Source: Oligoflexia bacterium
Lineage (GTDB): Bacteria; Bdellovibrionota; UBA1018
Length of the DNA stretch: 64,000 nt
Assembly (NCBI GenBank): GCA_031292385.1
Contig: JARLHE010000040.1
Location: 34,471 to 98,470, forward strand
Direction of reading: 5' to 3'
In this document: positions 4,232-50,533 of the stretch, piece after piece
Layout of the letters: each line of letters opens with the position of its first letter
Numbering within the stretch: the first letter of the stretch is position 1
Position numbers and translations under genes: made by a program
The notes under the pieces: model-generated
Database searches by the model: none
The model's input: the letters and a program-made list of their open reading frames with translations, nothing else
Told to the model about the DNA's origin: nothing

Positions 4232-5734
4232 ATGGCTCAATCAAGTGGCTCGATTGCCGGTCTGCCGACCGAACCGCGGTTCGATATCAGCCGCCTCACT
4301 CCTATCACGGATACTCTGTGGGAGCTGCCGGCTGACGCGGGCCGGGGAATGAGGGTGCCCGCAAGGATCTTCGGTACCCGTCACCTGCTAGAACAAATGG
4401 ATGCCGCGGTCTTCGAGCAAATTACGAACGTGGCGACGCTACCCGGTATCGTTCGATATGCTTGCTGCATGCCCGACGGGCATTCCGGGTATGGTTTTCC
4501 GATCGGAGGAGTCGCGGCATTCGACGCCGCGAACGGGGTGATTTCGCCCGGCGGCATAGGGTTCGACATCAACTGCGGGATGAGGCTCGTTGTGACATCG
4601 CTCACCTTCGATGAGGTGATGCCTCATCTTCATTCGCTCGTGGATCGGCTTTACGACCGGGTTCCGGCCGGAGTGGGTTGCGCGGGTCTACTTCGGCTTT
4701 CAACCGAAGACCTGCTTGAAATCGCGGAGAAGGGCGCGCTTTGGTGCTTGGAAAACGGCTACGCCTGGCCGGAGGACCTGGCGCTCACCGAGGATGGGGG
4801 GCGATCGCTGGGCGCCGATTCGAATCAAATCAGCCCTGAGGCGATCGCCCGAGGGCGCGGGCAAGTGGGGACTCTGGGCTCGGGAAATCATTATCTCGAA
4901 ATCCAGGTCGCTCGACCGGAAAATATTCACGATCCGCAAGTTGCCCGCAACCTCGGCATCGATCTACCGAATCAGGTTGTGATTATGTTTCATTGCGGAA
5001 GCCGGGGCTTCGGTCACCAAGTCGCAAGCGACTACCTGAGGCTCTTCATCGACGTCATGGAAAGAAAGTACGGAATCCGCGTTCCGGATCGGGAGCTGGC
5101 CTGTGCGCCTTTTGATTCGCCCGAAGGTCAGGCCTATTTCTCGGCGATGAAATGCGCGATCAATATGTCGTTCGTGAACCGCCAGGTCATTCTTCACCGG
5201 ATCCGGGAAGTCTTCAGCGACGAGTTTCATAAAGCCCCGGAAGAGCTCGGCTTACGCATGGTCTATGACGTCGCTCACAATACGGCCAAGCTCGAAAATC
5301 ATTGGATCGAGGGCAAGCAGAAAAAGCTCGTCGTTCATCGAAAAGGGGCGACTCGCTCTTTCGGGCCGGAAATGCCGGGTTTGCCCGAAAGATACCGCAA
5401 TTTAGGCCAACCCGTGATTATCGGGGGCAGCATGGAAAGCGGCTCCTATCTGATGCTGGGCCTGTCGAGCGCGGCCCCAGCGTTTTTCAGCAGCGCTCAT
5501 GGCAGCGGCCGAACGATGAGCCGAACTAAAGCCAAGCGTCAGTTCAGGGGGCGACAACTGGCCGACGATATGGCCTCGCGCGGAATTTACGTCAAGAGCG
5601 CATCCTATTCGGGCTTGGCGGAGGAGGCCGGCAAAGCTTACAAGGATATTGACGAGGTCGCTTCGGCGTCGGAGGCGGCGGGATTGAGCAGACGAATCGT
5701 GAAGCTGGTGCCCATTGGAAATATCAAAGGTTAG
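4232..5734 (+). CDS. rtcB: RNA-splicing ligase RtcB (3'-phosphate/5'-hydroxyl RNA ligase)
   Basis: Carries MPDGHSGYGFPIGG, GSGNHY, HNTA and C-terminal SAHGSGR, the RtcB metal- and GTP-binding motifs. The track start at 4208 is TTG; ATG 4232 has GGGGA 10 nt upstream. Confidence 0.85.
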   Translation: MAQSSGSIAGLPTEPRFDISRLTPITDTLWELPADAGRGMRVPARIFGTRHLLEQMDAAVFEQITNVATLPGIVRYACCMPDGHSGYGFPIGGVAAFDAANGVISPGGIGFDINCGMRLVVTSLTFDEVMPHLHSLVDRLYDRVPAGVGCAGLLRLSTEDLLEIAEKGALWCLENGYAWPEDLALTEDGGRSLGADSNQISPEAIARGRGQVGTLGSGNHYLEIQVARPENIHDPQVARNLGIDLPNQVVIMFHCGSRGFGHQVASDYLRLFIDVMERKYGIRVPDRELACAPFDSPEGQAYFSAMKCAINMSFVNRQVILHRIREVFSDEFHKAPEELGLRMVYDVAHNTAKLENHWIEGKQKKLVVHRKGATRSFGPEMPGLPERYRNLGQPVIIGGSMESGSYLMLGLSSAAPAFFSSAHGSGRTMSRTKAKRQFRGRQLADDMASRGIYVKSASYSGLAEEAGKAYKDIDEVASASEAAGLSRRIVKLVPIGNIKG

Positions 5735-7551: not shown

Positions 7552-9697
7552 AACCTTGGAAGTCAAGTCATCGGGTGGATTTGGTCCGGCGCTGACGAAG
7601 CTACTGCGCTCAGAATTGGGTGCGCGTCCTGGTCGAGTCCAGCATGTCCTTGCCATCAGCGCCTACGCGGTTTTGGCGGTGATTCTATCGGAGACCTTTC
7701 AAATCCCGGAACCGGCCCTGTCCGTTTACTATGTTTTTTTGATCACCAAGGAGGAGACGGCGTCGACGTTTTTGAGCGGAAGCCTGGCGGTTTTGGGCGT
7801 GAGCGCGGCGGTTCTCTCGGCGCTCGCGATTTACATGGTTTCGATCGGCGAGCCTGGCCTGAGGATGCCGCTCATGGCCGTCGTGATCTTCACGATCATG
7901 TTCATCTCGCGCGCATCGCGGCTGGGCGCCGCCAGCACGATGATCGGCCTTTTGGCGATTCAATCGCTCACTTTGCTGGACGTCATTCCGCTCTCCGATC
8001 CGCTTCCTGCCGCGGAATTACTGACGCAGCGGCTGCTTTGGCTTTGGGTGGTTATCCTGATGCCGGTTGGGCTGGTGATCGTGGGTAATATCGTCGCCGG
8101 GCGGGATCCCATTGATCTGTTCACTCACTATCTGGTCGAAGAGTTGGAGCTTGCGGCTCGAGTGCTGGTATCTCATCGCAGGCCCGCCGATCGGGAGCGA
8201 CTTGTCGCTTATGTTCAGGCGGATACGGGCAGGCTTCTGAAGTACCTGAAGATGTCGGGGACGTTCAAGAAGCGAACACTCCAAGAACAGGCGGTCAATC
8301 AGGCGCTGGTCGCTCATATGGGGCGTCTGACGGTGCTGCTTTCGCTATGGACGGAGCTTGACGTCAGTGAATCTCGGCTCGTGGAGGTCGCGGCCGGTTG
8401 CGGAGCCAAGCTTTTGTCGCAGGCGCGATTCATTCGGGAAAAGACGGCGGTTTCCATAAGGGCCTCCACGAAGCCAGAGTCGCCGTCGCTTCATGCCTTT
8501 AGTGAGGGATCGGAGAGCGATTCCGCGACCGAATGCAAGGCCTTCTATCTGCTGCGAAAAATAATTGAGCTGATCGAAACCTTGCCGCAGGCCTTGGTTT
8601 CGCGCGCCTCGTCGGACTCGGTTGAGCTCCAGAGCCGCGAAACCGAAATACCGAATCGGAGATTTCTACGGCCGGATGCGTTTCGCAATCGGGTCTACGT
8701 TCATTTCGCGCTCAAATGCACTCTTTCCGTTTTTACGGCTTATATTACCTACAATTTGTTGGATTGGCGCGGAATTCAGACGTGCATGATTACGACGATG
8801 GTCGTAACTCTCGGCAGCTTCGGAGAAACCGCGCATAAGATGGTCTTGCGCATCATCGGGGCGTTGATTGGCGGCGCCTTGGGGTTCTTGGCCGTCCTCT
8901 TCGTGATTCCTTATATGACGACCATCAGCGAATTGAGCTTGATGGTCGCGGTTGTTGCTTTCTTCTCCGCCTGGGTCATCACCAGCAGCGAACTGCTCTC
9001 CTATGCCGGGTTGCAAATCGCCCTGGCGTTTTTTCTCAGCACTCTCGTCGGATACGAGCCCACGGTGAATCTCGCGATCGGGCGAGATCGAATCATGGGC
9101 GTTTTATTCGGTAATTTGATTGTTTCCATTGTCTTTTCGACGATCTGGCCGGAAAGCGCCGTGGCACAATCAAAAGTGTCCCTCGCGCAGGCGCTTCGGA
9201 AATTGGCGGAATTCTTCGCGCCGGAATCCGAGCATCTGAGCGAGGTGCAGGCCGATTCACTTCTTTTTGAGTTAGGAGCCGCGATCGGGAGCGCGCGGCG
9301 CTTGGCGGTTTTGGACGCCTTTGAGCCCAAGCATATCAAGCAGGGAGCGATCCGGATGGCGGATCCCCGCGAAGTGATCGACGCGGTCCGCGATCTATGT
9401 AGCACTGCGATGGTTTTGCGCGATCCTCTTTTCAGGCATCCCGAACTGCCGTTGCTTACGAAGACCTACGATCAAGCGTTGAGCTTTTGGCTGGCGTTGT
9501 TCGCCAGGGAGGTCGAAGCCGGTATCGATGCCGGCGCTCCACCCGACGCGACTCCGCTGGTCCAAATCCTGCGCTCAGCGGCTCTTTGGTCAACCGAGAA
9601 GGTCGAGCTCCTGGCTTTGGCCGAGTGGTACCGCGCGCTCGATGATCAAGTGCATGGTCTTGAAAGATTGACAAAGCAAAAGGGGGCAACGAAGTGA
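7535..9697 (+). CDS. FUSC-family efflux transporter (MdtO/AaeB-like)
   Basis: 720 aa with two clusters of TM helices separated by a cytoplasmic domain. Overlaps the upstream gene. Confidence 0.8.
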   Translation: MVPIAETLEVKSSGGFGPALTKLLRSELGARPGRVQHVLAISAYAVLAVILSETFQIPEPALSVYYVFLITKEETASTFLSGSLAVLGVSAAVLSALAIYMVSIGEPGLRMPLMAVVIFTIMFISRASRLGAASTMIGLLAIQSLTLLDVIPLSDPLPAAELLTQRLLWLWVVILMPVGLVIVGNIVAGRDPIDLFTHYLVEELELAARVLVSHRRPADRERLVAYVQADTGRLLKYLKMSGTFKKRTLQEQAVNQALVAHMGRLTVLLSLWTELDVSESRLVEVAAGCGAKLLSQARFIREKTAVSIRASTKPESPSLHAFSEGSESDSATECKAFYLLRKIIELIETLPQALVSRASSDSVELQSRETEIPNRRFLRPDAFRNRVYVHFALKCTLSVFTAYITYNLLDWRGIQTCMITTMVVTLGSFGETAHKMVLRIIGALIGGALGFLAVLFVIPYMTTISELSLMVAVVAFFSAWVITSSELLSYAGLQIALAFFLSTLVGYEPTVNLAIGRDRIMGVLFGNLIVSIVFSTIWPESAVAQSKVSLAQALRKLAEFFAPESEHLSEVQADSLLFELGAAIGSARRLAVLDAFEPKHIKQGAIRMADPREVIDAVRDLCSTAMVLRDPLFRHPELPLLTKTYDQALSFWLALFAREVEAGIDAGAPPDATPLVQILRSAALWSTEKVELLALAEWYRALDDQVHGLERLTKQKGATK

Positions 9698-11205
9698 AGC
9701 CCCGTTCGGTTTTGACGAATACGGTAAGTGTCGCGGCCTCTCTGGTTTTGATCGGATGCTCGTCTGTCGCGCACTTGGCGCCGGAATCGCCCAGCCGGCC
9801 CTGGCAGCAAGCCGGAGAATCGCCGCAAAAGCCGATGATCACGCCAAAGTTCGGGGTGCGGCCGGATCCCGAACTTCCCTATAATGAGGAGCGAGTATCA
9901 ATTGCGGCGGATCATGTTTACACGCTCCCCGAGTTGATTGATTTAGCGGAACGCGCGAATCCCGATACGCGCATCGCCTGGGAAGAAGCCCAGCAAGCGG
10001 CTTTTCAGGTTGGGATTGAGCGCGCCAGTTATCTTCCGCAAATCAGCGCGGAAGTGCTTGCCGGCAAGCATTATGAACCGCTGCCGCTGCCGCCGGGAAG
10101 TTATTTCATCGCCAAAGGGGATGATCTTGAGCCTGATTTCATGATCAAATGGCTGCTCTTCGATTTCGGAAAGCGTGAGGCTCAGATTGACGCCGCCAAG
10201 GAGCTCTCCGTCGCTTCGAACATCGCTTTCACGGGTGCGCATCAAAAATTGATCTTCGAGGTGAGTAAGGCTTACTTCTATCTCGACGCGGTACGGGCGC
10301 AGCTTCGCGTTGCCGAGGATGCGCTGAAGAACGCGAATACTTTGCTGGATGCCGCCGGCGCCCGGCGACGGCACGGCTTCGAAACGATCACCGAAGTCAC
10401 GATCGCGCGCCGGGGAACGGCAAAGGCGCAATACGATCTTGAACGAGCCCGCTTGCTTGATAACGACGGCTATCATGCGCTTTTGGAGGCAATGGGTCTT
10501 ACGCCTACTTTGAGGCTGGGAATCGAGTCGAGCTCCGGTCGTCCCTTGCCGAAAGAGCTGACCGAAGAGGTGAGTGCTTACATTGATCGGGCCACCGTTC
10601 AGCGGCCGGATGTGGTCGCGGCCTTGGCTAAGGTTCGGGCGAGCGAATCCGAAATCGCCAAAGCCCAAGCGGAATTTTACCCGACGCTGGAGCTTAAAGG
10701 CCGGGCAGGCAGGAATTTCGCGCCCGTGAGCATCGACTTGGCGTCGGTTTATCAAGCGCCGTCCGGGCCGAGCTATAAGATCGACGATTGGGTCACTTCG
10801 ATTTCTCTCAATCTGAGCTTTTCCATCTATGACGGCGGGATACGCCAGCATAACGTGAGTATCGCCAACTCCAAGAGTGCGGCGGCCAAAGAGGAGCTGA
10901 TCAGAACCCAAGATCAGGCGGTTCGTCAGGTGGCAAGAGCTTACGACACGATGAGGAGCACGCTTGCCGAATACAATGCAGCTTTAGCGCTCGTCGACGC
11001 GGCGAATACGGCTTACGCCTCCGCTCTGGAATCTTATCGCAACGGAGTGGGCACATTCATCGATGCCGTTACAGCCGAAACGGAGAAAGCCCATGCCGAA
11101 TCAGCGCGAGCACAGGCTTATGCCGCGGCCTTGACCGCAGCCGCGACTCTCGCTTTCTCGACCGGCACGCTCACCTCGGTTGAGGCGCTGAATTCATCGC
11201 CTTAA
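9694..11205 (+). CDS. outer membrane efflux lipoprotein, NodT/OprM/MdtP family
   Basis: GTG start overlaps the stop of the FUSC gene. Lipobox LIGC, then the repeated OEP helical pattern of TolC-like proteins. Confidence 0.8.
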   Translation: MKPRSVLTNTVSVAASLVLIGCSSVAHLAPESPSRPWQQAGESPQKPMITPKFGVRPDPELPYNEERVSIAADHVYTLPELIDLAERANPDTRIAWEEAQQAAFQVGIERASYLPQISAEVLAGKHYEPLPLPPGSYFIAKGDDLEPDFMIKWLLFDFGKREAQIDAAKELSVASNIAFTGAHQKLIFEVSKAYFYLDAVRAQLRVAEDALKNANTLLDAAGARRRHGFETITEVTIARRGTAKAQYDLERARLLDNDGYHALLEAMGLTPTLRLGIESSSGRPLPKELTEEVSAYIDRATVQRPDVVAALAKVRASESEIAKAQAEFYPTLELKGRAGRNFAPVSIDLASVYQAPSGPSYKIDDWVTSISLNLSFSIYDGGIRQHNVSIANSKSAAAKEELIRTQDQAVRQVARAYDTMRSTLAEYNAALALVDAANTAYASALESYRNGVGTFIDAVTAETEKAHAESARAQAYAAALTAAATLAFSTGTLTSVEALNSSP

Positions 11206-12674: not shown

Positions 12675-14210
12675 TTAAATGTAAATTCCCGATTTACCGG
12701 GCGCGATAATGCCATTCGGATCCAGGGATCGCTTCAAGCGCTTATTTAAATTCCGTAATTCCTTGCTGTAGGTTTTCGCGGCCAGGTCCATGAACGCGAT
12801 ATTCGTGCGATAGCAGCCGTATCCAAGCTTCGCGTTCGCCTCGAGGGCTTCCTTGAAACAGGCATGAGCTCTTTGGGTCTCTTCAGGATTGGTTCTATCA
12901 AAGAGAAGATCAGCGACTTGCTCCAAGTGTCGCACTCCGAGCAAAAAGCCGATCGGGCAGTTAAAGCCATGCTTATTGAAAATTTCCTTCGTGGCGTTAT
13001 AGCATCGGACGACATCATAGGCCCGGGCGGGAAGGGCCGGCGCAAACCACGCGGAGCCGCCTCCTCCGATGAAGTTGTAGTTTCCAAACTCATGAAGCTC
13101 AGGGCGTCCGGTCATCATCCTTTGCCAGTGGCGCGCATCGGGGCTCGCGTTGAACGCTTCCCCGGTGAAGACGAATCCGCCCGTGGACTCGAAAGCCTCT
13201 CTACAAATTTTCAAATTGACGGCGACCTGTTCCTTGGTTCCATACAAGGTCGAGAAAAGGGCAAACTGCGGTATGCCGTGATCTTTATAATATTTAGCTA
13301 AAACGGCATCGGGAATCGCCCCTGGGCCATCGTAAATATCCGATCGCTTTTTCGTTGAAATAACGCCATAAAGCGCGGAACCAACGACCCCATTTTCCAT
13401 CACGGCGGAGAGTCGCATGCGACTGGCCATCTCAACTCCTTTGGCCATGGACTCGACATCATTCCAGCCCACGCCGAAGGATTCGTAGTGCGGAGGTTTT
13501 TTCATCAGCCAGAGGCCCATCTTCGTCACAACGCCTAAGTTCGACTGACTGAAAAGCCCGTCAACCCAGGGGCCGTAACCCCAACGATAAGATTGCCAGG
13601 TCTCTCCTTTGCCGATGCTTCCCATGCCGGTACGCACGACCTCGCCGTTTGCCAGGACAACTTCCAAGCCGCAGAAGTTAGAGAAATGTTCGCCGGCGCG
13701 ATTGTAGCCCACGCCCCGATCGAGAGTATTTCCCACCGGCCCAGCCAGCCCCCCGGACGAAGGAAAGCTCGCCCAGACATCCAGATTTCTTTCGTTGATA
13801 TAATCAACGAGTTCCTTATAGGTGACGCCGGGCTCCACAAGGGCGGTGCAAAGCACCGGGTCAATCTCAATGATCTTGTTCATGCCTCTCATGTCCAAAA
13901 CCATCTGTCCCGGTGTCGCCGGCGCCGCGGTGCCATATCCAAAATTCCGGCCGGTCGAAATCGGCCAAACGGGAATTCGATACTTGTTACAAATGCCAAG
14001 AACCTCTTGTACGTCCTTAACCGAACGAGCCAGTAAGGCCCCCGACGGCTGATGCTGGGAGTTTTCCGCCGGAATCATGATCTTCGAATACGGAGCGATT
14101 TTCTCCGGAGCCACAAGGACGTTTTCGTTTCCGAGCGCTTCTTTATATTCGCCGATGGCCTTATCAAAAGCTTCTTTGGAAACACCCTTGGGTAAAACGG
14201 AATTGGTCAT
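12675..14210 (-). CDS. FAD-linked oxidase, VAO/PCMH family (p-cresol methylhydroxylase flavoprotein-like)
   Basis: FAD_binding_4 N-terminal domain (PVWPISTGRNFGYG...SGGLAGP); about 510 aa from the MTNSVLPKG start. The upstream ORF extension was rejected. Confidence 0.8.
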   Translation of the reverse strand: MTNSVLPKGVSKEAFDKAIGEYKEALGNENVLVAPEKIAPYSKIMIPAENSQHQPSGALLARSVKDVQEVLGICNKYRIPVWPISTGRNFGYGTAAPATPGQMVLDMRGMNKIIEIDPVLCTALVEPGVTYKELVDYINERNLDVWASFPSSGGLAGPVGNTLDRGVGYNRAGEHFSNFCGLEVVLANGEVVRTGMGSIGKGETWQSYRWGYGPWVDGLFSQSNLGVVTKMGLWLMKKPPHYESFGVGWNDVESMAKGVEMASRMRLSAVMENGVVGSALYGVISTKKRSDIYDGPGAIPDAVLAKYYKDHGIPQFALFSTLYGTKEQVAVNLKICREAFESTGGFVFTGEAFNASPDARHWQRMMTGRPELHEFGNYNFIGGGGSAWFAPALPARAYDVVRCYNATKEIFNKHGFNCPIGFLLGVRHLEQVADLLFDRTNPEETQRAHACFKEALEANAKLGYGCYRTNIAFMDLAAKTYSKELRNLNKRLKRSLDPNGIIAPGKSGIYI

Positions 14211-17850: not shown

Positions 17851-20800
17851 TCAGTGCCGCGCGACCGACGAACACTCCTTTCCTTTGCAATACACGGTTA
17901 AAGTCGCGTCGGCCGGAGCGATATTGTTGCCTAGGTCGGTCTGCAAGGCGCCGACCGGCAACTCGTTGTGGAAGTGGCCCTTGCAATTCCCGATCACGTA
18001 CAACGTCACCGTACAGGAGCCGTTGGCCGGGATCGAGCCACCCTTCAAGGTCACACTTCCCGTTTTGGATATGACCTTTCCTCCGCAAGTGGTTTTGGCG
18101 TAACCGGCGTTTTCCAAGCCGTCAGGCAAATAGTCAGTAAGCGGAGCCGTCAGCTTGGCGATCGTGTTGTTCGGGTTGCTCAGGGTAATGGTCAAGACCG
18201 ATGCCTGTCCCTTTTTGATTTTGTCCGGACAGAACGACTTGCTGAGCGTAGGTGGAATGGTCACGGGAGTCGGAAGAACGGTCAACGTCGCGATGGCCGG
18301 CGCGGCGTTGTTGCCTGCGCTTGTCTGCAAGGCGCCGATGGCCAACGTGTCGATGTAATTGCCTCCGCTGGCAACGGTCACGGGCACCGTTATCGTGCAG
18401 GAGCCGTTGGCCGGGATCGCACCTCCCGTCAATGTCACCGTTGAAGCGCCGGTACTGACCACACCTCCGCAGGTATTGCTGGCGCTGCCGGAAACCACGA
18501 CACCGCTGGGTAACGTGTCCGTAAGCGGCGAGGTCAGGCTCGCAGCCGTTGCGTTGGTGTTGCTGAGGGTGATGGTGAGAGTCGAAGCACCGCCCGAAGG
18601 AATCGTCGCCGGGCTGAAGGCCTTGCCAAGCGTGACGGTAGAGGGAATGGAAACCGTCAACGTCGCGATGGCCGGAGCGGTATTGCTTCCGCTACTGGTC
18701 TGCAATGCACCGACGGCAAGCGAATCGATGTAGTTGCCGCCGTTCGCCGCGGTCACGGGCACCGTCACGGTACAGGATCCGTTAGCCGGGATCGATCCTC
18801 CGGTCAGAGTCACCGTCGACGAGCTTGTGGTGACCGTGCCGCCACAAGTGTTGCTCCCGCTACCTGAGACTACGAGTCCGCTAGGCAACGTATCGGTAAA
18901 CGGCGAGGTTAATGCCGCGGCTGTCGCGTTGGCGTTGCTCAGGGTAACGGTGAGAGTCGATGTACCGCCCGCCGCGATCGTTGCAGGGCTGAAAGCCTTG
19001 CCCAACGAGGGCGCGACCACCGGCGTGATCACCGTCAGGGTAGCGATGGCCGGGGCGGTATTATTGCCGTTGCTCGTCTGCAAGGAGCCAGCGGGCAGGG
19101 TGTCGATGTAGTTGCCGCCGTTCGCCGCGGTCACGGGTACCGTCACCGTGCAGGAGCTGTTAGCCGGGATCGCTCCTCCGGTCAGCGTCACCGTCGAAGA
19201 GCTTGTGGTGACCGTGCCGCCACAAGTGTTGCTCCCGCTACCTGAGACTACGAGTCCGCTAGGCAGCGTATCGGTAAACGGAGCGCTTAAGCTCGCGGCC
19301 GTCGCGTTGGTGTTGCTCAAGGTAATGGTGAGCGTCGAGCTTCCGCCCGCATTGATCGTGGCCGGGCTGAAGGCTTTGCCCAGCGCGGGCGCGACCTCTG
19401 GCGTATTGACGGTCAATGTCGCGATTGCTGGAAACGCATTGATTCCGTTGCTGGTTTGCAGGGAACCGGCGGCGATCGAGTCGATATAGTTGCCCCCATT
19501 AGCGGCAGTCACGGGTACCGTGACCGTGCAGGAGCCGTTGGCCGGGATCGATCCGCCCGTCAGGGTTACCGTAGAAGTCGTTGTAGTGACCGTGCCGCCA
19601 CAAGTGCTGCTCCCGCTGCCAGAGACGGCAACACCACTTGGCAGCGTGTCGGTGAACGGCGAGGTCAGGCTCGCGGCCGCCGAATCAGCGTTGCTCAGGG
19701 TAATGGTGAGGGTCGAGGTACCTCCCGCATCGATAATCGCTGGGCCAAATGCTTTGCCGAGAGTCGGCGCTATCACGGGAGCGACGACCGTTAAGGTCGC
19801 AACCGCTGGAGCGGCATTGGCGCCGTTACTGGTCTGCAATGCGCCGGCAGCCAATGAGTTGATGTAGTTGCCGCCGTTTGGCGCGGTCACAGGTACCGTG
19901 ACCGTGCACGAGCCGTTGGCCGGGATCGCTCCAGCCGATAGGGTCACTGTCGAGGAGGTCGTGGTCACCGTACCGCCGCAGGTGTCGCTGCCGCTGCCGG
20001 AGACGGTAACACCGCTCGGCAATGTGTCGGTGAGCGGCGAGGTGATGCTCGCGGCCGCCGAATCGGCGTTGCTCAGGGTAATGGTGAGGGTCGAGCTACC
20101 GCCCGCATTAATGGTGGCTGGAGCGAAGTCCTTGCCGAGCGTGGGCGCGGTGGGCGGTTGAGGAACGGTCAAGGTCGCAACTGCCGGAGCGGCGTTGCTT
20201 CCATTGCTGGTCTGCAAGGCACCGACGGCGAGCGAGTCGACGTAGCTGCCGCCGTTCGCGGCGGTCACGGGCACGGTGACCGTGCAGGAACCGCCGGCCG
20301 GGATCGAACCTCCCGTCAAAGTAATTGCTGAAGTGCTTGTCGTGATCGTACCGCCGCAGGTGGTGCTACCACTGCCGGAGATCACTACGCCGCTGGGCAA
20401 CGTATCGGTGAATGGGGAGGTTAGGCTCGCGGCCGTGGTGCCGGAGTTGCTCAACGTGATCGTGAGGGTCGATGGGTTCCCCTCGCTGACGGTGGCCGGA
20501 CTGAAGGCCTTGCCAAGAGTGATTTCAGGCAGGGCGCACACGGAGAGCGTGACGACATTGGAATCCATCGTCACCGCGCCGTTCTGAGCCAGAGTTCTGC
20601 CGGATACAGTGGCGTCGGTATTGAGCGTGATGCTCGTAAGCGCGAGAATATTTCCTATGAATGTCGTGCTTGTACCGATCGTCGCGGAGCTGCCGACTTG
20701 CCAAAAGACATTGCATTCTTGAGCACCATTAATGAGCAGCACGGACGAGCCACTCGCCGTCGTGAGTGTGCTCCCTATCTTGAAAATCCAGACCGCATTT

Positions 20801-21270
20801 GGATTGCCTTGGGCATCTAGAGTGACCGCTCCCGTCAGTTGAGCCGAGGACGAAAAGCAATAGACTCCCGGCACGAGTGTGAGTCCGCCGATATCCGTTG
20901 GAACGCCATAGGTGGTATCGCACGCCTGGCCCGCCAAATCGTTATACGCGGTAGTGGTATCGCTCTGAGCCTGAGCCGCTACCGCATCCGCCGCGTGTAT
21001 GGTCCCTCCGACCACGGTTCCCGGCGGAAAGCCCGTGACCGCCGTGCCCGGGCTGACTCCAAGATTTCCGGTCACAATGCTCGGCCCGGTATTGGTTACC
21101 GTCGAGGCTCCGAGTACGGCAAAGCTCTGCGCAGTCCCCAATGAAGGCGCGACCTGTGCCCACGCCGCATGAAATGAGGGGGCAAAAGGAAACGCGGCGA
21201 TCGCGCCGATAAACGCAAACTTCGCAAAAACGCTTTTAAAAATTCTAGTTCGAACGATGGGACTTTTCAT
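17851..21270 (-). CDS. large secreted surface protein: ice-binding-like DUF3494 beta-helix head + ~8 DUF11 repeats
   Basis: Signal peptide MKSPIVRTRIFKSVFAKFAFIGAIAAF. The N-terminal domain (AQSFAVLGASTVTNTGPSIVTGNLGVSPGTAVTGFPPG...AQSDTTTAYNDLA) matches the DUF3494 IBP-like consensus. It is followed by ~125-aa repeats with TDTLPSG..VSGSGS.TCGG...SCTVTVPVTA (DUF11-like). The track's ORF start at 21360 is an unsupported extension. Confidence 0.8.
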   Translation of the reverse strand: MKSPIVRTRIFKSVFAKFAFIGAIAAFPFAPSFHAAWAQVAPSLGTAQSFAVLGASTVTNTGPSIVTGNLGVSPGTAVTGFPPGTVVGGTIHAADAVAAQAQSDTTTAYNDLAGQACDTTYGVPTDIGGLTLVPGVYCFSSSAQLTGAVTLDAQGNPNAVWIFKIGSTLTTASGSSVLLINGAQECNVFWQVGSSATIGTSTTFIGNILALTSITLNTDATVSGRTLAQNGAVTMDSNVVTLSVCALPEITLGKAFSPATVSEGNPSTLTITLSNSGTTAASLTSPFTDTLPSGVVISGSGSTTCGGTITTSTSAITLTGGSIPAGGSCTVTVPVTAANGGSYVDSLAVGALQTSNGSNAAPAVATLTVPQPPTAPTLGKDFAPATINAGGSSTLTITLSNADSAAASITSPLTDTLPSGVTVSGSGSDTCGGTVTTTSSTVTLSAGAIPANGSCTVTVPVTAPNGGNYINSLAAGALQTSNGANAAPAVATLTVVAPVIAPTLGKAFGPAIIDAGGTSTLTITLSNADSAAASLTSPFTDTLPSGVAVSGSGSSTCGGTVTTTTSTVTLTGGSIPANGSCTVTVPVTAANGGNYIDSIAAGSLQTSNGINAFPAIATLTVNTPEVAPALGKAFSPATINAGGSSTLTITLSNTNATAASLSAPFTDTLPSGLVVSGSGSNTCGGTVTTSSSTVTLTGGAIPANSSCTVTVPVTAANGGNYIDTLPAGSLQTSNGNNTAPAIATLTVITPVVAPSLGKAFSPATIAAGGTSTLTVTLSNANATAAALTSPFTDTLPSGLVVSGSGSNTCGGTVTTSSSTVTLTGGSIPANGSCTVTVPVTAANGGNYIDSLAVGALQTSSGSNTAPAIATLTVSIPSTVTLGKAFSPATIPSGGASTLTITLSNTNATAASLTSPLTDTLPSGVVVSGSASNTCGGVVSTGASTVTLTGGAIPANGSCTITVPVTVASGGNYIDTLAIGALQTSAGNNAAPAIATLTVLPTPVTIPPTLSKSFCPDKIKKGQASVLTITLSNPNNTIAKLTAPLTDYLPDGLENAGYAKTTCGGKVISKTGSVTLKGGSIPANGSCTVTLYVIGNCKGHFHNELPVGALQTDLGNNIAPADATLTVYCKGKECSSVARH
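18359..20245. repeat. five near-identical 378-bp tandem repeats inside the surface-protein gene, flanked by more diverged copies out to about 17854 and 20460
   Basis: Antisense ORFs recur at 18359, 18734, 19112, 19490 and 19868 with a 378-nt period and near-identical translations. Confidence 0.7.
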
Positions 21271-21451
21271 ATCAGGCTCCGAATGCTCATTAATAAATGA
21301 AGATGTTTCTTCCGTCAGATCTGCGATGTGACCGCGGGGCCTGTGCAGAATTGGTGCCATCGATGCATCGGGAAAAACGACTGGGCTGGCGCTACATCAC
21401 CGAGTTTCGTGCGTAGCTCGCTTCATGTTGCAATTCACGTTGCAGGAGGCA

Positions 21452-22183
21452 TTAGTTGGGTGAGTAGGATGCCGACCAAATCAAGTCGTTACCGAGTTCG
21501 CATTCGGCGTTCGGCTGGGTCAGCTGAAAGGGGCCCCAGAAAACAGGGCACGAGCATTCCGCATAGCCATTTTCGATTCGGCAGGGTGCCGTCATACATC
21601 CCGCGTAGGGCGCTTTGGGGCACTGGGTAATCCCGGATGCGCCCGAATGCGCAGCCATTGCCTCGCTCTGGGAGGTCCTCACTTGTGGGCTGAAATCGGA
21701 AATGATTTCGGCGCCGGGAATCAGTTTTCCTTGCTGGATGTAGCGGCAAACGGGGGCCTTATCTACCTGCGTTGCGCAACCACTTCCGTCCATTCCACAG
21801 ACGGAGACCGTTTCCAGATATACATCGTAGTTCAAAATGGAGTTGATGGTGACAAACTGAAGTCCCGACTCAATGGTGCACTTGCAGTTTGCAAAGCGGC
21901 CTGTTTTGTCTAGTGTGCATGGCAGAGGCTCGGGCCCTGAGTTGAAGCAAAGCGCGTAGCTGCCAGTACACGGCAAGAAGTTCGATAGCGCTTCATTCGT
22001 ATCCCGATAAGCGGGACCGTAATTCGTGGTCCAGTGCTTTGAGTAGTCCCAGAACTCCTGGGAGTCGGGGACGAAATGGACCGGCTTGCATTGGCCTTGA
22101 GCGAACGCCCCTGTTGCGGCGACGCAAAGCAGGGCGACTAAAAAAGCGAAATTCTGAATCTGTTTCACCGAAATTATCTCCAT
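21452..22183 (-). CDS. secreted cysteine-rich hypothetical protein
   Basis: Signal peptide FAFLVALLCVAATGAFAQGQ, then about 15 Cys in the mature part. Lower GC than its surroundings. Sits 181 nt upstream of the surface-protein gene on the same strand. Confidence 0.5.
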   Translation of the reverse strand: MEIISVKQIQNFAFLVALLCVAATGAFAQGQCKPVHFVPDSQEFWDYSKHWTTNYGPAYRDTNEALSNFLPCTGSYALCFNSGPEPLPCTLDKTGRFANCKCTIESGLQFVTINSILNYDVYLETVSVCGMDGSGCATQVDKAPVCRYIQQGKLIPGAEIISDFSPQVRTSQSEAMAAHSGASGITQCPKAPYAGCMTAPCRIENGYAECSCPVFWGPFQLTQPNAECELGNDLIWSASYSPN

Positions 22184-22337
22184 TTATGCTTGGGCGAGCA
22201 TGTAAACGCCATCTCTGTCGCCTTGCATAGATTCGACATTGCTCCTCATCGCAGGCGGGGTGCAGCCAAGTGCAGATGTTGTGCCACCAAAAATGCGATC
22301 ACATCGCGATCATGACTCGTGATCGGAGGCCTTAAGA

Positions 22338-22512
22338 ATGAAGAATGGCGCCCGCATTCTGTGGCGGCAACCGAAGCTGAGTCTCGCGGAGCTGGCAAAA
22401 CTACGCTGGGAATAAGGTTTAGGAGTCCGAGAAATCGCACGGCAGCTGGGTCTCTCCCATTCGTCCGTCGTTGAGCGGTTAAATCGCTGGAAAGAGCAAA
22501 ATAATGGATAGC
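22338..22512 (+). pseudogene. HTH gene fragment (IS630-type transposase or sigma70-region4-like N-terminus) with in-frame TAA
   Basis: MKNGARILWRQPKLSLAELAKLRWE-TAA-GLGVREIARQLGLSHSSVVERLNRWKEQNNG reads in one frame, interrupted by TAA at 22413 and ending after 58 codons. Confidence 0.4.
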
Positions 22513-22758
22513 GCTATCGACAAGTTCATCACGTTGGCGACGGCGCGGGTGGTTTCGTTGCGCCCCGGGTGCCATTCCTTTTTATCTAATTATATTATAA
22601 TTATACAATGACGTGACGTATCGCGTTAATCTCGCTTGCGTAAAGTCTGAGAATACTATGGCTTCCAGCTCGGTTAATTAGTCCTCGGTAAATCAAGGGG
22701 AGGTATCCTCTCTTACGAAACCCGGGCAGTATCTACGTCCCGACATAGGAGAAAATTT

Positions 22759-23159
22759 ATGAAAAAAGTGGTTTGATTTTTGTTTCAACAGCTCTCACGC
22801 TTTTGAGTTTAAACGCTTTTTCAAAAAGCAACCTCAACGGAGGTACTAGCGCTTCCGATCTCCAACAGCTTCTTTCCGAGTTACAATTGCCTTCAGGCTG
22901 CACACTTGGTTTGACGTCGAATGGCTCAGGCTTTGATGTGACTCTGAGCACGCCAAACGGAACGGGACACGCTACCGTCAGCAACAATGACCAGTTCTCA
23001 AATGCCCGAACGACGACGTACGGTGCCGATGGTATTACTGTTTCGGGTCAAGCCAGCTCAGGTGATAACATAACGTATGTTGAGACCGTCGACGATTCCG
23101 ATAACGACGTCTTCGTGAGCCTTCAAGTGGGTTCCGCAAATTGTGCCGCACAGCCATAA
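22759..23159 (+). pseudogene. small secreted protein gene disrupted (or phase-switched) at an A6 tract
   Basis: AGGAG, then ATG at 22759, then AAAAAA, then a stop after 5 codons. One extra A would give MKKSGLIFVSTALTLLSLNAFS... in frame with the 128-aa ORF at 22773-23159. Confidence 0.45.
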
Positions 23160-23340
23160 CCTCGTTGCTGAATAAAACTCCACTCCAGGTCAGCTAGCGA
23201 AGGCGCCGGGGGCGTGAACGGTTTATCTTACTAGGTCCGTCGCCACTTGTCCTTGTAGCTCGGCGGTGAATTTGTTTTTGGTGGTGGAAGGTTCAATAGA
23301 AATCATTTGGTCGAAGCTAAAAACCAATTTCAGCAAACAA

Positions 23341-23380
23341 AAAGGGCCGAGGGAGAGCATCCCTTGGCCTTTTCTTTTTT
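23341..23380. terminator. bidirectional rho-independent terminator hairpin
   Basis: aaagggccgaggg/cccttggcctttt stem with T-runs on both strands. Confidence 0.45.
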
Positions 23381-23455
23381 CGGGGTTGACCAGTCGTTCC
23401 GCCGCCATTTGGCGGGCTCGGATTTGACGGTCAAAAGTGCGTCTGATTTTAGAAT

Positions 23456-23475
23456 TGGCGCGCCCGGAGAGATTC
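23456..23475. repeat. exact 20-nt direct copy of the tRNA-Arg 3' end (att-like scar)
   Basis: tggcgcgcccggagagattc is identical to 23807-23826. Confidence 0.75.
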
Positions 23476-23582
23476 ACTTTTCGCGTTCGTGCGAAAAGTA
23501 GCTCCTTGATGAGGTCGGCCCATCCTGGGTCTCCTTCTTTTTATTGTTTTGCTTCGCAAAACGGGTCGTCGAACTCCACTCC

Positions 23583-23601
23583 GCGCGTCCGGAGAGATTC
23601 G
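23583..23601. repeat. degenerate direct copy of the tRNA-Arg 3' end (1 mismatch in 19 nt)
   Basis: gcgcgTccggagagattcg versus gcgcgCccggagagattcg. Confidence 0.55.
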
Positions 23602-23760
23602 GCCTTCGCCTCTTCGCTCCTGCTCAGAGGCTCGGCATGGACAATTTGCTAAGTCGCGCTTCCTGCGCGCCTTGCCTCGCCAGACTCTCCGCTGGAGAGT
23701 CCGTCGCGGCCGCAAATTCTCGTTCGAATCTCTTCGGGAACAACAATCTATGAAAATGAA

Positions 23761-23800
23761 AAAGGGCAGGAACGTTCGTTCCCGCCCTTTTTCATTTTGT
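23761..23800. terminator. terminator hairpin immediately 3' of tRNA-Arg (bidirectional)
   Basis: aaagggcaggaacg/cgttcccgcccttt stem followed by tttttcatttt; the reverse strand also ends in a T-run. Confidence 0.55.
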
Positions 23801-23806
23801 AGATTA

Positions 23807-23883
23807 TGGCGCGCCCGGAGAGATTCGAACTCCCGACCAACTGGTTCGAAGCCAGCTACTCTATCCAACTGAGCTACGGGCGC
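23807..23883 (-). tRNA. tRNA-Arg (anticodon TCG)
   Basis: 77-nt cloverleaf on the minus strand, GCGCCCG-TA-GCTC-AGTTGGATAGA-GTAG-CTGG CTTCGAA CCAG...CGGGCGC-G-CCA. The anticodon loop CTTCGAA gives UCG. CCA is encoded. Confidence 0.85.
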
Positions 23884-23930
23884 CCCGGTTTTCTGACAGA
23901 AAGATTACTTAACCTAAGCCCTGGATGCGG

Positions 23931-50444: not shown

Positions 50445-50533
50445 GCCGGGGTGGCGAAATTGGTAGACGCACAGGACTTAAAATCCTGAGTTCCGCAAGG
50501 GGCGTACCGGTTCGATTCCGGTCCTCGGCACCA
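50445..50533 (+). tRNA. tRNA-Leu (anticodon TAA), CCA encoded
   Basis: GCCGGGG-TG-GCGAAATTGGTAGACGC-ACAGGA CTTAAAA TCCTG-long variable arm-T arm-CCTCGGC-A-CCA. Type II tRNA with anticodon UAA. Confidence 0.85.

Follow-up and report, generated by a model that had tools for sequence, protein, structure and literature searches.

Displaced 3' fragments of a tRNA-Arg(TCG) gene, probable scars of integration, in an uncultured Oligoflexia bacterium

The tRNA-Arg(TCG) gene and its partial copies

We examined a window of 64,000 nucleotides from an uncultured Oligoflexia bacterium of the Bdellovibrionota (GenBank assembly GCA_031292385.1, contig JARLHE010000040.1, positions 34,471 to 98,470 of the forward strand), in which an intact tRNA-Arg(TCG) gene is followed by two displaced copies of its own 3' end, here designated copy A and copy B. 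Window coordinates count from the first letter of this stretch. The tRNA gene lies on the minus strand with its downstream side to the left; the CDF transporter gene and the rib operon are on its right. A preliminary description, made from the letters of the window, had interpreted the site as a degraded integration hotspot. In the direction of its own strand, the tRNA is followed by 9 nt, a terminator, an inverted piece of the tRNA, copy B, a 107-bp spacer with a hairpin, and copy A:

23807-23883, minus strand: intact tRNA-Arg(TCG), 77 nt with the CCA encoded (ARAGORN; Rfam tRNA, 67.8 bits)
23753-23798: strong bidirectional terminator hairpin, 9 nt past the tRNA 3' end, with 22-nt arms that are 95% complementary
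23722-23738, plus strand: inverted piece GTTCGAATCTCTTCGGG, 16/17 to tRNA nt 54-70
23602-23806: spacer 1, from the tRNA to copy B, 205 bp
23583-23601, minus strand: copy B, displaced 3' fragment CGAATCTCTCCGGACGCGC, 18/19 to tRNA nt 57-75, without CCA
23476-23582: spacer 2, between copies B and A, 107 bp
23456-23475, minus strand: copy A, the outermost displaced 3' fragment, 20/20 to tRNA nt 58-77, with CCA

The repeated core is the 3'-terminal 20 nt of the tRNA (23807-23826). In plus-strand reading, TGGCGCGCCCGGAGAGATTC is found exactly at 23807-23826, within the tRNA, and at 23456-23475. When the tRNA was aligned to the downstream DNA by BLAST, copies A and B were located on the strand of the tRNA and on its 3' side. 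Both copies start in the T-loop (G/CGAATC...) and end at the discriminator (copy B) or at the CCA (copy A). The inverted piece, which the preliminary description had not reported, is 69-85 nt away from the tRNA on its downstream side.

In shuffled sequences, the expected number of matches was 0.04 for the 20-mer at three or fewer mismatches and 0.00 for the 19-mer at no more than one mismatch, and likewise 0.00 for the inverted piece. These controls exclude a chance origin of the copies. The exact copy at 23456-23475 and the one-mismatch copy at 23583-23601, both noted in the preliminary description, are therefore real and far above the shuffle expectation. At a control gene, tRNA-Leu at 50445, no fragments of this kind were found. 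A further direct copy considered near 22558-22577 was rejected; it matches at only 14/20 positions, and 11 equally good matches in the window put it at the background level. We also considered copies A and B as decayed whole tRNAs, but neither matches the tRNA model and nothing upstream of the core is tRNA-like. ARAGORN and Rfam did not call the 17-20 nt fragments as tRNA genes.

Two independent short-read assemblies match the window at 100% identity over 19236-23834 and 21025-23834, respectively; an error in any one assembly therefore does not account for the repeats or for the frameshift described in the last section. In five samples (including SRR23300977, SRR23300978, SRR23300979, and SRR23300985), the Logan contigs all stop within the tRNA, at 23850 when coming from the right and at 23834 when coming from the left, and the tRNA is a branching node in the assembly graphs. 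We did not take these breaks as evidence of strain polymorphism, because a tRNA common to several community members explains them equally well.

The DNA enclosed by the repeats amounts to only 331 bp (23476-23806) and has no credible gene. Spacer 1 contains the terminator and the inverted piece, and has no notable open reading frame (ORF) and no homologue. The 62-nt trailer that includes the terminator (23745-23806) folds at -36 kcal/mol (z = -11.8). In spacer 2, a perfect 9-bp hairpin (23476-23499) adjoins copy A. The two spacers have no similarity to one another or to the tRNA trailer, which indicates that the copies came with different DNAs and not as one duplicated unit. Apart from the cores and the hairpins, no arm-type repeats of at least 9 nt were found in the spacers, and the tRNA was the only Rfam family in the region at the gathering score. 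A 24-codon ORF (MGRPHQGATFRTNAKSESLRARQF, 23449-23523, minus strand) overlaps copy A and is preceded, at a distance of 7 nt, by a strong Shine-Dalgarno sequence (AAGGAG); this ORF is probably fortuitous.

The same core in proviruses and the same tRNA in related genomes

The exact 20-mer core was found in 45 stretches of IMG/VR, in most of which the identity block is longer and begins at the anticodon loop. The two ends of one 46.9-kb provirus carry, respectively, a tRNA-Arg followed by an ORF of 329 amino acids and a 22-nt 3' fragment. This fragment is of the T-loop type, like the copies in the window. Tyrosine-recombinase box II motifs were recognized in the 329-residue ORF by eye, with no Pfam search run. 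To judge from these arrangements, the 20-mer apparently serves as an attachment-site (att) core in IMG/VR proviruses.

Relatives were located by means of the adjacent CDF gene. The neighbourhood of rib operon, CDF gene, and tRNA-Arg(TCG) was found in six of them (listed with the CDF identity):

L215 (82%): tRNA inverted relative to the CDF gene
L217 (81%): toxin-antitoxin modules, with the tRNA on one side and a 39-nt internal tRNA fragment on the other; tRNA inverted relative to the CDF gene
L218 (80%): intact tyrosine integrase 148 nt past the tRNA (PF00589, E = 2.5e-24)
L074 (62%): HigB(Gp49)/HigA module at 8587-9679, bounded by a 12-nt tRNA end, CCGGGTGCGCCA
L130 (60%): AT-rich DNA and a decayed integrase C-terminus
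L005 (57%): IS200-like gene past the tRNA

To the right of the tRNA, murC, sua5, HD, ribD, ribE, ribBA, ribH, and the CDF gene are syntenic with the window in L074, L215, and L218. Synteny with the window stops at the tRNA in all five relatives tested (L074, L005, L215, L217, and L218); the contig of L130 stops about 530 bp past the tRNA. The DNA past the tRNA differs in each relative. The integrase call in L130 was made from a weak Pfam match together with tblastn matches to integrases that adjoin the same att in viral loci.

Nothing but the tRNA is common to the window and the relatives at the DNA level. The preliminary description had named, as the observation that would speak against it, the same triple repeat in relatives that have no island; no relative examined shares the triple repeat.

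The arrangement of the tRNA also varies. In L215 (tRNA at 13648-13724) and L217 (8018-8094), the inverted tRNA is 2.7 and 5.2 kb away from the CDF gene, respectively, with its 3' end towards that gene, whereas in L218 (11022-11098) and in the window the tRNA is near the CDF gene and co-directional with it. The L215 and L218 tRNAs are 100% identical. Upstream of the L218 tRNA, at 10911-10952, is a decayed tRNA 3' fragment with its trailer (AATCCTGCCGGGCGCCTCCAC / CTATCAAACGGGTTCGGTCT), which is homologous to the end and trailer of the L215 tRNA (local alignment 22, versus 9 +/- 1.6 for shuffled sequences); this configuration is unusual. In L217, the internal fragment at 5220-5258 corresponds to tRNA-Arg nt 12-50 (39/39) without either end; located 2.8 kb downstream of the tRNA, it marks the border of a segment that contains DUF4160/BrnA and Fic modules. 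In L074, a third copy of the tRNA end (10 nt, GGGTGCGCCA) comes after a 49-nt duplicate of the 3' end of higA (98% identity), and this integrase-less HigB/HigA unit seems to have once been present in tandem.

We searched the window itself for remains of an element. No integrase relic was found in the 64 kb, where tblastn with the L218 integrase gave a best E value of 0.87, in agreement with the statement in the preliminary description that no integrase survives. The 786 ORFs from the 45 viral loci that share the att core gave no tblastn match in the 64 kb, and blastn of 22184-23806 against phage and plasmid collections gave none either. A search of IMG/VR for a parent element by junction patterns returned zero matches. 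No residual phage structural, replication, or lysis genes were detected by tblastn, by blastn, or by PHROG comparison of two neighbouring genes, an ORFan and a gene for a Cys-rich protein (see the last section).

Origin of the copies

Copies A and B are probably attachment-site scars, that is, 3' fragments of tRNA-Arg displaced by integration. From the geometry of the fragments and from the other genomes, we infer an integrase origin, the number and order of the events, and the subsequent deletions. The attP of the tyrosine-integrase elements concerned would have carried the last 20 or so nucleotides of tRNA-Arg, from the T-loop to the CCA. Recombination within this identity block would insert the element just 3' of the T-loop. 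The tRNA would then be made whole by the copy on the element, and its previous 3' end would come to lie at the distal end of the element. Two or more insertions of this kind would leave copies B and A in tandem, downstream and in the orientation of the tRNA. If they occurred serially into the regenerated tRNA, copy A would be the original end and copy B would stem from the first element. Later deletions may then have removed nearly all of the element DNA, including the integrase and the excisionase, and left the unrelated spacers of 205 and 107 bp; the inverted 17-nt piece would require at least one further rearrangement. Two or more integrations into a regenerated tRNA followed by deletion are the most economical history. 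Judged from the sequence, the locus now appears inert, with 331 bp of scar DNA behind a working tRNA that is equipped with a strong terminator of its own.

Islands and prophages integrated in tRNA genes (tDNAs), with a displaced 3' tDNA fragment, were reportedly described by Reiter in 1989 and by Williams in 2002. The present locus resembles them in that a full tRNA is followed downstream by 3' fragments in the same orientation, with an identity block from the T-loop to the 3' end, in that the 20-mer is an att core in IMG/VR proviruses, and in that integrases are found at this tRNA in relatives. Unlike such islands, which span at least 2 kb, the locus has no integrase, has intervals of 107-331 bp, and retains scars only. 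According to Islander, crossover within tRNA genes takes place at the anticodon loop, at the T-loop, or at the T/acceptor junction (PMC4383910); with their starts at nt 58 and 57, copies A and B fall into the T-loop / T-acceptor-junction class. Of the features that Islander uses, the locus has a full tDNA and a cognate fragment on the same replicon, and the fragment is from the 3' end, downstream and oriented like the tDNA; the piece at 23722-23738, being internal and inverted, has neither the end nor the orientation needed. No tyrosine integrase lies in the interval, and the lengths are 205, 107, and 331 bp versus 2-200 kb. Copies A and B are scars and not a callable island.

The cis-mobilizable elements (CIMEs) of Streptococcus are integrase-less remnants flanked by att sites. 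Our locus is similar to tandem arrays and CIMEs in having three att-type cores in a row, with units between them that lack recombination genes; the three cores would therefore reflect successive integrations into a regenerated target. Unlike described CIMEs, the units here are far smaller and have no cargo and no identified parent element. Tandems of a phage and an integrative and conjugative element are treated as tandem or accreted integrative elements in PMC13651849. Fragments of tRNA genes that stem from the integration of elements are reported to be pervasive in prokaryotes (PMC9897764), and the copies in the window are likewise partial tRNA copies such as mobile-element integration leaves; unlike those fragments, they are 17-20 nt long, too short to be miscalled as tRNA genes.

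Several observations weigh against attachment-site scars. Simple serial integration does not account for the inverted piece or for the 9-nt sequence GGAGTTCGA after copy B. The nearest relatives have a CDF identity of only about 80%, and no empty or occupied allele of the exact site was seen among them. There is no mobile-element gene between the copies and no integrase relic in the 64 kb, and the 205- and 107-bp spacers match nothing in the searches of IMG/VR junctions, phages, and plasmids and have no arm-type motif repeats.

The 205- and 107-bp units could instead be miniature, integrase-less, att-flanked elements of the CIME type that are still excised, re-integrated, or accreted by an integrase acting in trans. 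Direct copies of the core do flank each spacer, and an active-looking integrase is present at this tRNA in a related lineage. The integrase-less toxin-antitoxin unit of L074 has tRNA-end repeats on both sides, and after it comes what is left of a second tandem copy; this indicates that integrase-less units persist or multiply at the site. Such continued mobility is nevertheless unlikely, as copy B has a mismatch and lacks the CCA, arm-type repeats are absent, no integrase is found in the 64 kb, the same arrangement occurs in two samples, and the junction sequences are absent from IMG/VR. We find it very doubtful, too, that the tRNA-end copies form a working array of recombination sites in which the integrase of a transient element shuffles, deletes, accretes, and inverts tiny non-autonomous units; if true, this would account for the inverted piece, for the tRNA orientation in L215 and L217, which is flipped with respect to that in L218 and the window, and for the tandem unit in L074.

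That no mobile-element gene lies between the copies, and that the distances are very short, would also suit an integrase-independent local duplication of the tRNA 3' end by replication slippage, illegitimate recombination, or patchy gene conversion; the inverted piece and the internal fragment in L217 are indeed non-canonical rearrangements at this locus. This origin is quite improbable, however, given spacers that are unlike each other and unlike the tRNA trailer, two fragments that extend from a shared T-loop position to the 3' end, as integrase crossover sites would, and the integrases at this tRNA in relatives. It is scarcely credible that the repeated tRNA-end motifs, with the hairpins, act in the tRNA trailer as a cis-element or small RNA with a function in, for example, processing, termination, or regulation: several stable hairpins, one of them adjoining copy A, would fit this idea, but the copies sit past a very strong terminator, the region is not conserved in relatives, and no Rfam family except tRNA reaches the gathering score.

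Displaced att-type ends at a degraded hotspot thus remain the preferred explanation, and the fragment geometry, the att core in IMG/VR, and the integrases and toxin-antitoxin modules in relatives support the core of what the preliminary description had proposed. The tRNA-Arg(TCG) gene beside the rib operon and the CDF gene would be a hotspot of repeated integration and a breakpoint of synteny in an Oligoflexia/Bdellovibrionota lineage of which little has been sampled. The 20-bp att core could help to locate integrative elements of these bacteria, and the DNA to the left of the tRNA should be regarded as flexible genome. In itself, the locus is a new instance, in an uncultured Oligoflexia, of an ordinary and well-understood type of scar; it raises no new mechanistic question and adds little beyond annotation.

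DNA to the left of copy A

The preliminary description had counted 22190-23455 among the likely remnants of one or more islands. This reading did not hold, since the stretch lies beyond the outermost tRNA fragment and is not defined as island DNA, while the repeats enclose 331 bp without genes. The stretch includes the following features:

22338-22511, plus strand: helix-turn-helix (HTH) reading frame of 57 codons, with ATG at 22338, an in-frame TAA at 22413-22415, and TAG at 22509-22511
22759-23159, plus strand: frameshifted ORFan, with ATG at 22759 preceded by a Shine-Dalgarno sequence, an A6 run, and a body ORF of 128 codons at 22773-23159
23341-23373, favouring the plus strand: terminator-like hairpin (fold of 23330-23392, -26.1 kcal/mol on the plus strand versus -18.2 on the minus strand)

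The HTH frame and the ORFan are both outside the segment bounded by the repeats, past copy A. The GC content of 22001-23500 is 50.2%, the lowest in the window (56.8% overall, z = -2.6), but the tetranucleotide deviation at 22-23.5 kb is modest (z about 1.4), and composition was not accepted as proof of an island. Low GC, pseudogenes, and a lack of homologues are what point to a foreign origin of 22190-23455, which falls short of establishing an island. The low-GC stretch is probably decaying accessory DNA at the same hotspot, but it is not delimited by the repeats.

In Pfam, the HTH frame matched generic HTH families only (HTH_23, 26 bits). Weak, sub-threshold matches were obtained to the N-terminal HTHs of transposases (PHROG 2422, IS66 TnpA, and IS21) and to sigma-70 region 4, and a word-index search of 5.8 billion proteins found no homologue. 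No DDE transposase domain follows the HTH; the six-frame translation shows only the 57-codon frame. No inverted repeats flanking 22190-22600 were among the 25 longest in the window, and no search aimed at them was made. The frame probably represents a pseudogene, or the N-terminal part, of a protein that binds DNA or resembles a transposase. In the preliminary description it had been called an HTH fragment cut by an in-frame TAA at 22413; the stop and the HTH itself stand, with 57 codons, and the assignment to the IS630 type does not, as the weak matches are to several families.

The ORFan encodes a signal-peptide-like N-terminus, and its ATG at 22759 is out of frame with the ORF at 22773-23159 after the A6 run, as expected for the small secreted-protein gene broken at a homopolymer that had been described earlier. 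It has no homologue among 1.84 billion representatives and no Pfam or PHROG match. The hairpin at 23341-23373 probably ends the transcript of this small ORF. It was also considered as the original tRNA terminator past copy A; its better fold and its T-run are on the plus strand, so this is not claimed.

Farther to the left, the gene at 21452-22183 (minus strand) encodes a secreted Cys-rich protein of 243 amino acids, which belongs to no family in Pfam, PHROG, or NCBIfam. Its homologues number more than 500, at 55-74% identity, and come from several distant phyla; this conservation is far above that of the neighbouring housekeeping genes between relatives. In the three contexts examined, the homologues lie in unrelated neighbourhoods with no association with a tRNA or an adhesin. 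We therefore rejected this gene as island cargo; for it and for the adjacent adhesin gene, both suggested as possible cargo in the preliminary description, no link to an integrative element was found. In one genome, the gene for the Cys-rich homologue lies within the mur/fts (dcw) cluster.

The adhesin gene (17851-21360, minus strand) encodes a surface protein of 1169 amino acids with an ice-binding-like domain, 7 DUF7933 repeats, and DUF11. Its 20.0-20.5 kb end contains DNA repeats spaced 378 nt from start to start. With a GC content of up to 65%, this gene is the strongest compositional outlier of the window, which probably reflects its internal repeats.

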